Source of the DNA: Candidatus Dormiibacterota bacterium
Lineage (GTDB): Bacteria; Chloroflexota; Dormibacteria; Aeolococcales; Aeolococcaceae
Length of the DNA: 64,000 nt
Direction of reading: 5' to 3'
NCBI GenBank assembly: GCA_963718525.1
Contig: OY970355.1
Location: 1,312,001-1,376,000 of the forward strand
This document shows, in pieces, positions 8,348-10,579 of the stretch. Position 1 is the stretch's first letter. Every line of letters begins with the position of its first letter. The notes beneath the pieces are model-generated. The model made no database searches and was not told the origin of the DNA. It worked only from the letters and a program-made list of their open reading frames with translations. The position numbers and the translations under genes were made by a program.

Positions 8348-9535
8348 ATGAAGCTGCTCGAGTACCAGGCGAAACAGCGCTTTGCTTCAGCCGGCATCGC
8401 GGTCCCGCCGGGCCGGCTGGCGCGAACCCCGGAGGAGGCCGCAGCAGCGGCTCGCGAGCTCGGCCGCGTCGCTGTCAAGGCGCAGGTGCCCATCGGCGGG
8501 AGAGGCAAGGCGGGTGGCATCGCCGTCGTCGACACCCCAGAGGAGGCCCAGCGCGAGGCTGCGCGGATCCTGGCGATGGACATCCGCGGCTACCCGGTGC
8601 GGAGCGTCTGGTGCGAGACCGGTCTCTCCATCGAAGCGGAGCTCTACCTGGGGATCACGCTGGACCGCGATCGCCGCCGCCTGGTGATCATCTTCTCGGC
8701 GGCGGGCGGCATGGAGATCGAGCAGGTCGCCGTCGAGGCTCCTGAGCGCATCGCCAAGCTGTGGCCCGATCCGTTTGCGGGTCCGCAGCCCTTCGAGATC
8801 CGCCGGCTGGCGTTTGCAGGGTTGGCGCATGCGCCGGAGCTGCGCGACCGCGTCCCGAAGTTGGTGAGCACCCTGGTCGGACTCACCACTCGGCTCTACT
8901 CGGTCGCGGTGTCTTTCGATGCGCTGACGTGCGAGATCAACCCGCTGGTGCTCACGCCGGACGGCGCCCTCGTTGCCGCGGACGGAAAGCTCGAGACCGA
9001 TGAGAACGCGGACTACCGGCACGGGGATGTTGCCGAGGAGCTGGCGCGCGATGAGACCGGCGATGACGGCCGCAGCGGCGACGACCCTTTCGAGGTCGAG
9101 GCGCGCAAACGTGGTCTGACCTACGTACACCTCGACGGCGACATCGGCTGCATCGGCAACGGTGCCGGACTCACGATGAACACGCTCGACCTTGTCAAGC
9201 AGCACGGCGGTGAGCCCGCCAACTTCCTCGACATCGGTGGCGGCGCGAACGCGGAACGCGTGCGCAACGCCCTCGAGATGGTGCTCCTCGACCCCAAGGT
9301 GCGCGGCGTGTTCATCAACATCTTCGGGGGGATCACACGTGGTGACGAGGTCGCGCGCGGGATCATCGCGGCGCGCGACCAGCTGCGAATCACCAAGCCA
9401 TTGGTCGTTCGCATGACGGGGACCATGGAAGAAGAGGGTCGGCAGTTACTGGAAGAAGCAGGCATCGTCCCGGCCAAGAGCGCCAGCGAAGCGGCCGAGA
9501 GCATCGTCGCGCTTACCAGGGGGGGCAGCGAATGA
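8348..9535 (+). CDS. sucC: succinyl-CoA synthetase beta subunit
   Basis: MKLLEYQAK, KAQVPIGGRGKAGGI, EINPL, GNGAGL, PANFLDIGGG and NIFGGI. Confidence 0.93.
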   Translation: MKLLEYQAKQRFASAGIAVPPGRLARTPEEAAAAARELGRVAVKAQVPIGGRGKAGGIAVVDTPEEAQREAARILAMDIRGYPVRSVWCETGLSIEAELYLGITLDRDRRRLVIIFSAAGGMEIEQVAVEAPERIAKLWPDPFAGPQPFEIRRLAFAGLAHAPELRDRVPKLVSTLVGLTTRLYSVAVSFDALTCEINPLVLTPDGALVAADGKLETDENADYRHGDVAEELARDETGDDGRSGDDPFEVEARKRGLTYVHLDGDIGCIGNGAGLTMNTLDLVKQHGGEPANFLDIGGGANAERVRNALEMVLLDPKVRGVFINIFGGITRGDEVARGIIAARDQLRITKPLVVRMTGTMEEEGRQLLEEAGIVPAKSASEAAESIVALTRGGSE

Positions 9536-9698
9536 ACTGCGTCTCGCACGGAGTGGGGAGGGCATGAACGGAGGAGGGCCGTCTCGCAGCCCGGGCTACC
9601 CCCCCGGGCGAGAGCGAGGGGCGGAACGGCGAAGGCGTTCCGACCCCGTGCCCGCCGTAGTTCATGCCCTCCCCACGCCCACTGAAGCCGTCTCATGA
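9532..9698. repeat. palindromic MITE/REP-like insert between sucC and sucD, with a 17-bp perfect inverted repeat and ATGA direct repeats at both ends
   Basis: GTGGGGAGGGCATGAAC (9553-9569) and GTTCATGCCCTCCCCAC (9660-9676). Two internal hairpins (GCCCGGG/CCCGGGC and CGGAACG/CGTTCCG). ATGA at 9532-9535 and 9695-9698. Confidence 0.75.
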
Positions 9699-10579
9699 GC
9701 GTCCTTGTCGATCGGTCCAGCCGCGTCGTCATCCAGGGCATCACCGGGCGCGAGGGGAGCTTTCATACGGGGCAGATGCGCGCTTTCGGGACCAACATCG
9801 TCGCGGGGGTATCGCCCGGCAAGGGTGGGAGCGACCAGGATGGGATCCCCATCTTTGACACGGTCGCCGATGCTGCTGCGGCCACTGGCGCGGACGTGTC
9901 GGGGATCTTCGTGCCGCCTGCTTTTGCCGCTGACGCAATCATGGAGTCAGCCGCCGCAGGGATCCGGTTGACGGTGTGCATCACTGAGGGAATCCCCGTG
10001 CTGGACATGATTCGCGCTCGCGAGTTCGTGCTCCGGACAGGCAACCACCTCCTCGGCGCGAACTGCCCGGGAATCGTGACCCCCGAGCAGTGCAAGGTCG
10101 GGATCATCCCCAACCACATCAACACTCCCGGGCCGGTCGGGATCGTCGGGCGCAGCGGCACCCTCACCTACGAGGTGATACAGGGGCTCGGACAGGGAGG
10201 GATGGGCCAGACGACGTCAGTCGGCATCGGCGGAGACCCGGTGATGGGGCTCAGCTTTCCGGATGTGCTCCGTCTCTTCGCCGACGATACGGAGACGCGC
10301 GCCGTGGTGCTCATCGGTGAGATCGGTGGCTCCGACGAGGAGACCGCGGCCGCGTGGATTCGCGACACCGGATTCGACAAGCCGGTGGTGGCGTTCATCT
10401 CCGGTCGAACGGCGCCTCCGGGAAAGCGAATGGGCCACGCGGGCGCGATCATCAGCGGCAACACCGGCAGCGCGCAGAGCAAGATCGACGCGCTCACCGC
10501 TGCTGGCGCGGAGATCGCCGATACGATCGAGGACGTGGTGCGGTTGACGGCGGCGAGGCTGGACGCTCGCTCTCGCTGA
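9695..10579 (+). CDS. sucD: succinyl-CoA synthetase alpha subunit
   Basis: [31 protein letters not shown] and GEIGG, plus the phospho-His motif RMGHAGAI. Confidence 0.95.

Follow-up and report, generated by a model that had tools for sequence, protein, structure and literature searches.

A genus-specific palindromic repeat between sucC and sucD of Candidatus Dormibacterota, in a spacer apparently kept open as a chain of coupled reading frames

The closest described counterparts of the element analyzed here are palindromic repeats that carry open reading frames (ORFs), namely RPE, ERIC, YPAL and the 107-bp form of the Correia element, which according to the available text of the papers concerned are fused in frame into the ORFs of their hosts (PMC2229807, PMC10969869). 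REPs, as described in the accessible part of the source, are 20–40 nt long and bear a GTAG or CGTC tag (PMC3733652). Full-text searching, with subscription journals outside its coverage, found no literature linking a miniature inverted-repeat element with translational coupling, and the available portions of the literature on Dormibacterota repeats, under the same limit of coverage, yielded nothing on such elements. Small inversions flanked by hairpins are familiar from the non-coding DNA of chloroplasts, in which either orientation is found in close relatives and the segments have flipped repeatedly and independently.

The locus compared with these systems is the junction of the succinyl-CoA synthetase genes in a window of 64,000 nt (the whole stretch of DNA that was analyzed) from a Candidatus Dormibacterota genome assembled as one contig of 3.34 Mb. 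As shown in Table 1, the two genes are separated by a gap of 159 nt which is largely occupied by a palindromic repeat. From the comparative evidence presented below, we consider it probable that this is an old, genus-specific repeat residing in the 3′ end of sucC, and that it has been tolerated because the spacer is kept translatable as a chain of coupled ORFs.

Table 1. Features of the sucC–sucD junction (positions refer to the window)
Feature	Positions	Strand	Basis and remarks
sucC (succinyl-CoA synthetase beta subunit)	8348–9535	+	ORF list; Pfam ATP-grasp_2 and Ligase_CoA
Extra left-arm copy, degenerate	9519–9549	+	Comparison with relatives; carries the sucC stop and the first ATGA
Relay mini-ORF 1	9532–9567	+	11 codons, MNCVSHGVGRA; start overlaps the sucC stop (ATGA), stop overlaps ATGA 9564–9567
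Palindromic three-way-junction repeat, 131 nt	9550–9680	+	Match to covariance model R1, 142.7 bits, E 5.9e-24
Left arm, perfect 17-bp inverted repeat	9553–9569	+	Includes the second ATGA (9564–9567)
Relay mini-ORF 2	9564–9698	+	44 codons; spans the whole repeat; ends in the ATGA that starts sucD
Hairpin P2 of the core	9580–9616	+	Sequence and predicted fold
Hairpin P3 of the core	9618–9647	+	Sequence and predicted fold
Right arm, perfect 17-bp inverted repeat	9660–9676	+	Sequence
Site-specific spacer, repeat to sucD	9681–9694	+	In relatives matches the tail of naive sucC
sucD (succinyl-CoA synthetase alpha subunit)	9695–10579	+	ORF list; Pfam CoA_binding and Ligase_CoA; starts in ATGA 9695–9698

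The stop codon of sucC (TGA, 9533–9535) is part of an ATGA (9532–9535) and follows a run of seven G residues (9519–9525) that resembles a Shine-Dalgarno sequence. From here, the two mini-ORFs join sucC to sucD through 4-nt overlaps, and direct reading of the sequence found no clear Shine-Dalgarno sequence ahead of sucD. Most of this had been described in an earlier note on the same DNA: the ATGA overlaps, the G-run, the coordinates of both mini-ORFs and the 17-bp inverted repeat agree with the sequence and the ORF listing, and the note was also right that sucD lacks a clear Shine-Dalgarno sequence of its own. Of the two nested hairpins that it reported, both do lie inside the long stem, but they stand side by side and are not nested in each other. 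At this junction, core and operon point in the same direction.

The predicted fold of positions 9520–9710 has an energy of −111.3 kcal/mol, compared to a mean of −86.7 for 200 dinucleotide shuffles of the same stretch (z = −5.2), none of which (0/200) reached the native value. An Rfam 15 scan of positions 9300–9900 with E values up to 10 gave chance-level matches only (the best at 12–21 bits, compared to cut-offs of 39–97), and no promoter-like or terminator-like sites were detected in the same interval. The peptides of the mini-ORFs had no Pfam match.

Comparison of the sucC tail with that of relatives revealed that the last sucC codons, together with the stop, fall within the degenerate copy of the left arm. 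In most sucCD loci of relatives, a tandem left-arm duplicate of this kind precedes the element. Since 9519–9549 is an extra arm copy and the spacer on the right resembles the tail of naive sucC, the unit of 163 nt bounded by a 4-bp ATGA target-site duplication, as proposed in the earlier note, does not seem to reflect the anatomy of the element. The family comparison gives the shorter limits listed in Table 1, the first ATGA belongs to the degenerate arm copy, and inspection of 75 copies by eye revealed no flanking direct repeats; instead, the flanks often prolong the palindrome.

Searching the own genome at the DNA level identified three copies of the repeat (0.277, 0.826 and 1.3215 Mb), in each of which the model strand is the + strand. 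Besides the sucCD copy, one is located directly 3′ of the purS stop and before purQ, with its core antisense to the operon, and the other separates a DUF503 gene from the small conserved gene upstream of it. The core of approximately 85 nt is nearly identical in the three copies, while the outer stems differ in sequence, each being fully complementary. In an alignment of 21 copies, compensatory double changes affect 15 of the 47 predicted base pairs.

The repeat family was detected only in one genus of Candidatus Dormibacterota. Model R1 has matches in 39 of 42 genomes of this genus, roughly 1–20 per genome, a number that includes some weak reverse-strand echoes; no match was obtained in the remaining three (G002, G045 and G057), which are 87–90% complete. 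With stricter Infernal filters, none of 150 genomes sampled from the rest of the phylum, including five from four other genera of the same family, contained a match. In a collection of species representatives, a 28-nt core pattern matched 66 stretches, each of them titled Candidatus Dormibacterota, and in viral contigs it had 0 matches. The idea of a multi-copy structured element, put forward in the earlier note, is thus borne out by the three copies in the own genome and by the presence of the family across the genus.

In its size and ends, the repeat is MITE-like (a 131-nt unit, inverted-repeat arms of 17–31 bp, no transposase gene), and so is its dispersal, with several copies and with presence/absence differences among relatives (empty sucCD and DUF503 sites). 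Element ends of the type 5′-TA-3′ were not seen by eye in the 75 copies. No parent insertion sequence sharing these ends emerged from the DNA-level search of the own genome, which returned the three short copies only, and a search of this genome for a Y1 transposase (Y1_Tnp, PF01797) gave no match, while control genomes do match.

A variant subfamily, which has a different P2 loop containing TTAAC, occurs in genome G052 as four copies arrayed in tandem, two of them full and two partial (locus L200, 1201–1720, contig C6; also in locus L181). The array lies just past the stop of a 387-aa ORF, and G052 is the genome with the most model matches (20). The 20 public sequencing runs consisted of assembled contigs only. 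Among them, metatranscriptome contigs from soil (run X15) hold the core (window positions 9555–9674) on both strands, next to flanking sequence of other sites; as DNA carry-over into this RNA library is possible, these contigs do not prove transcription.

The 75 strong copies that were collected occupy a few orthologous sites common to many species: sucC/sucD, purS/purQ, the DUF503 junction, one site between convergent genes, and several others including gene 3′ ends. The sequence of the outer stem differs by site, and the core is common to all of them. Among 27 genomes of the genus with both sucC and sucD on one locus, the site is filled in 23 and empty in four (G002, G010, G020 and G023), and it is also empty in all five sister-family loci examined. 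The empty alleles of the genus are a plain sucC-[AG]TGA-sucD overlap, the very form for which the earlier note had advised looking. The purS/purQ site is filled in all 28 genomes of the genus examined (one of which, G041, has Ns in the spacer of locus L205 and was left out of the chain count given below), and the naive junction, seen in 9/9 sister-family loci, consists of TGA, 2 nt and a start codon. At the DUF503 site, 23 loci were compared (L236–L258). A spacer of at least 140 nt is present in ten loci with both genes on the locus; in L252 the spacer is matched by R1 and the upstream gene was not found; three loci contain remnants (44, 80 and 82 nt), eight have short spacers of 4–38 nt, and L255 was not assessable. 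Genomes flagged as unpublished (G027, G032 and G036) supply 2/5 of the sucCD and 3/9 of the purSQ sister-family loci, as well as 2/4 of the tree outgroups; the statements on the sister family and on the tree hold without them.

In a tree built from three genes, G002, which is without the element, branches at the base, and the other genomes with an empty sucCD site (G020, G023 and G010) are nested among filled ones; the empty alleles may stem from loss, from an exchange of alleles or from an error in the tree. At four empty DUF503 junctions (L243, L245, L249 and L256), the spacer of 33–35 nt contains an 8-codon mini-ORF, which starts in a GTGA at the upstream stop and ends 10–12 nt before the DUF503 start. 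Since this mini-ORF is already present in the empty spacers, the repeat seems to have entered a pre-existing relay there. A further copy (L064, G052:C5:416101–416231) lies between a 327-codon ORF and a 263-codon ORF starting with MSTS, and it is crossed by a coupled bridging ORF. The tail of the 327-codon ORF resembles the element-derived tail of sucC, and this locus is possibly a sucCD-like paralogue that was duplicated along with the repeat.

These sites bear on three further proposals of the earlier note. An element targeting ATGA junctions exclusively is not what the distribution indicates, given the copies between convergent genes, the form of the naive purS/purQ junction and the 4–38-nt gaps at naive DUF503 junctions. 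An RNA switch specific to the SucC:SucD ratio does not agree with the presence of the same element in unrelated operons. The suggestion that the element supplies its own start codon holds for sucCD and some purSQ loci, but fails at the DUF503 site, where the arms have no ATG.

In order to be scored as a chain, the ORFs of a spacer had to begin at the stop of the upstream gene, with each start located −4 to +3 nt from the end of the previous stop, and the last stop located at most 12 nt ahead of the first base of the start codon of the next gene, or at most 4 nt beyond that base. An unbroken chain linking the two genes was found in 60 of 63 genome–site cases: 22 of 23 filled genomes at sucCD (the failing locus is L033), 26 of 27 at purS/purQ (L185) and 12 of 13 at the DUF503 site (L180). 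The three failing loci are without a chain, yet both genes have been kept. The chain across sucCD described in the earlier note is thus conserved, and it recurs at two other junctions.

Since kinship inflates these raw counts, the number of distinct spacer lengths is a fairer measure, and the chain is kept in 33 of 36. Among the 29 lengths at sucCD and purSQ, 22 are 1 mod 3 and seven are 0 mod 3, the latter rescued by an internal overlap in every case but one; a length of 2 mod 3 does not occur. Most chains consist of one ORF of 42–121 codons, like that of the own purS–purQ spacer, whose 310 nt form one ORF of 104 codons. The own sucCD spacer and a few others contain two or three ORFs joined at the ATGA of the arm.

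Three controls were applied. When all possible deletions and duplications of 1–2 nt were introduced into the spacers, the chain survived in 15% on average. Reverse-complementing the spacer in place kept it in 9/18, 2/21 and 2/10 loci, and length-preserving dinucleotide shuffles kept it in 50% (sucCD), 19% and 2.5% of trials. As half of the shuffled sucCD spacers still form a chain, the signal lies mainly in a frame-preserving length and not in the absence of stops.

These controls bear on the possibility that the repeat is a neutral selfish palindrome, whose open frames and ATGA overlaps would simply follow from a high G+C content and from the palindromic arm motif, without selection on translation. 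Approximately 4/6 frames are open through any copy of the repeat, whatever its context, and the mean number at coupled junctions does not clearly differ from that of other copies (3.86 vs 4.00). The arm motif CATGA[AG]C provides a start and a stop for free, and the result with the shuffled sucCD spacers of unchanged length fits such an origin as well. One frame alone does differ, being open in 48/50 coupled copies vs 12/24 others, counts that are not independent. We nevertheless regard neutrality as decidedly unlikely, because the chain persists in nearly all distinct lengths, none of them 2 mod 3 at two sites, compared to the 15% that survive small indels, because the element is conserved far above synonymous sites, and because deletions within it are multiples of three. 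The deletions are exemplified by the short repeat variants of 89 nt found in purS–purQ at L210, L212 and L219 (genomes G007, G011 and G003, respectively), which are without hairpin P3 and have lost exactly 42 nt, i.e. 14 codons. In another purS–purQ spacer (L075/L214, genome G022; 361 nt), the 3′ end of purS and the left half of the repeat are tandemly triplicated, and the spacer is still one ORF, of 121 codons, coupled at both ends.

Frames that are open in nearly all genomes could also suggest that the mini-ORFs encode a genuine small protein. The chain is present with the core in either orientation, however, and the peptides of the two orientations are completely different; a different frame, or a mixture of frames, is used at some loci, and the peptides are of low complexity and match no Pfam family. 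A small protein is, on this evidence, hardly credible. It is the continuity of the chain that is conserved and not the peptide.

The sequence of events that would account for these observations under our preferred reading, tolerance of the repeat through a translatable spacer, can be outlined as follows. The repeat (131 nt, with a long outer stem and two hairpins) would have entered the 3′ end of sucC and broken the stop/start overlap between the genes, and it would have been tolerated because the entire spacer stays translatable. A ribosome finishing sucC may restart at the overlapping ATG, cross the hairpin in two steps (9532–9567, then 9564–9698) and terminate exactly on the start codon of sucD, where it could re-initiate. 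Translation of the spacer would unwind a structure of roughly −100 kcal/mol and avoid an untranslated stretch. Selection would then act on the continuity of the chain, not on the peptide, through the removal of indels and stops that break it. The repeat family, its sites, the empty alleles and the conservation of both chain and structure are observations; that ribosomes use the chain, and that it keeps sucD expressed, we infer.

The rate at which the element itself changes was compared with that of sucD. For copies at the same site in different genomes, the identity is 0.91 in the core and 0.88 in the arms; for different sites in different genomes, the values are 0.89 and 0.76, and for different sites in the same genome 0.905 and 0.76. 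In the same genomes, sucD codon positions 1, 2 and 3 have identities of 0.95, 0.96 and 0.59. The element therefore evolves far more slowly than synonymous sites (~0.9 vs 0.59 identity), and with an identity so far above that of sucD third positions the repeat is not decaying junk. Concerted evolution among the copies of one genome was considered as well and rejected, since the core identity within genomes (0.905) shows no real effect when set against that between genomes (0.891).

In 75 aligned copies (L002, L003, L056–L085 and L166–L205), G.U pairs outnumber A.C mismatches on the model strand by 67 to 16, counts which include inherited states. The excess is seen in the arms (32 vs 12) and in the inner helices (35 vs 4), and both in copies that are sense (8 vs 1) and in those that are antisense (36 vs 8) to the operon; the states of the P3 pair are A-U 40, G.U 22 and G-C 13. 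Where the direction is known (51 copies), the model strand runs antisense to the operon 42 times and sense nine times. As the G.U excess occurs on one fixed strand which is mostly antisense, selection on the fold seems not to act on the mRNA.

Two candidate sources of the strand bias were rejected. Replication strand was one of them: cumulative GC skew, which is weak in this genome, has its minimum at ~1.2 Mb (putative origin) and its maximum at ~2.42 Mb (terminus), giving very unequal replication arms, and the three copies (n = 3) fall on both arms. The other was an IS200-type partner, the own genome being without a Y1 transposase. By the same weak skew, the window (1.312–1.376 Mb) adjoins the putative origin.

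The strand-specific G.U bias is left unaccounted for by the relay explanation. Together with the strong conservation of the element, this wobble bias points to a putative function of the element's own. That function could reside in one particular strand, working either as a small antisense RNA or as a protein-bound single-stranded DNA structure, the relay being the accommodation of the host where copies lie in operons, a possibility to which we give some weight while holding it doubtful. The identity of 0.89–0.91, which is like that of first and second codon positions, the absence of any sign of homogenization within genomes, the G.U excess irrespective of operon direction, the P3 states and the copies between convergent genes all agree with it. 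Its weaker points are the lack of promoter-like and terminator-like sites around the sucCD copy (9300–9900) and of an Rfam match, the genome without a Y1 transposase, the location of the copies on more than one replication arm as judged from GC skew, and the inherited states contained in the G.U counts. This explanation is moreover compatible with the relay and does not exclude it.

Both core orientations occur at all three junctions, and the flips are scattered on the rough three-gene tree. One public-run contig, from a diverged relative, joins the end of sucC to the core on the opposite strand. Flipped copies keep their own arm mismatches (L085 vs L078), and since the mismatches travel with the flip, the unit turns as a whole. 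The scattered flips, the arm mismatches carried along and the different peptides produced from the two orientations raise the question of an invertible DNA switch, in which the core would flip between the inverted repeats, alter the access of ribosomes to the downstream gene and thereby tune subunit ratios. Such a switch seems unlikely: there is no promoter-like site inside the repeat, the inter-arm spacer of ~75 bp is far below the usual size for a switch driven by a recombinase, occasional inversions mediated by hairpins on an evolutionary timescale would look alike, and the tree on which the flips are placed was built on three genes. A related and similarly unlikely possibility is that the repeat is a domesticated functional nucleic acid, selected for the fold of one strand regardless of operon direction and flipping whole, whose orientation sets the efficiency of the relay to the downstream cistron. 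If this were true, the flipping repeat would constitute a heritable flip-switch by which core metabolic operons of Dormibacterota set their subunit ratios.

The relay itself has wider bearings. Comparison of three unrelated operons across dozens of genomes provides evidence that a repetitive palindrome fits inside a coupled gene pair if the spacer forms a continuous chain of ORFs. This has implications for the annotation of "hypothetical" mini-ORFs in repeat-filled spacers and for the tolerance of compact genomes towards selfish or structural repeats, and the junctions may serve as a natural system for examining how far termination-reinitiation can be relayed through strong RNA structure.

When set beside the known systems, the repeat shares with the small inversions of chloroplasts a segment lying between perfect inverted repeats and found in either orientation in close relatives; it differs in that the flipping segment is located in the translated spacer of an operon and is under strong purifying selection. 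Like REP/BIME elements with their RAYT, it is an intergenic palindromic repeat inside operons; unlike them, it is 131 nt long, with three helices in a three-way junction, and its genome encodes no Y1 transposase domain.

The likeness to RPE, ERIC, YPAL and the 107-bp Correia form, which is one of published descriptions in the available text and not of sequences, is closer: all are palindromes of 100–170 nt with long stem-loops and open frames, which are co-transcribed and tolerated where they are translated (PMC2229807, PMC10969869). In-frame insertion of the RPE type is not what was found at sucCD, where the ORF that spans the repeat does not share the frame of sucC and terminates on the start codon of sucD, and where the arm copy contributes only the last few sucC codons to a host protein. 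As far as the accessible descriptions of those families extend, the Dormibacterota repeat stands apart in forming a separate ORF, in another frame, that is stop/start-coupled to both neighbors in either orientation.

Finally, the chain resembles termination-reinitiation coupling at ATGA and TGATG overlaps, in that every link is a stop/start overlap and the empty alleles are plain overlaps of sucC and sucD. It goes beyond plain coupling in that the putative relay passes through one to three non-genic ORFs of 4–121 codons, across a very stable structure.
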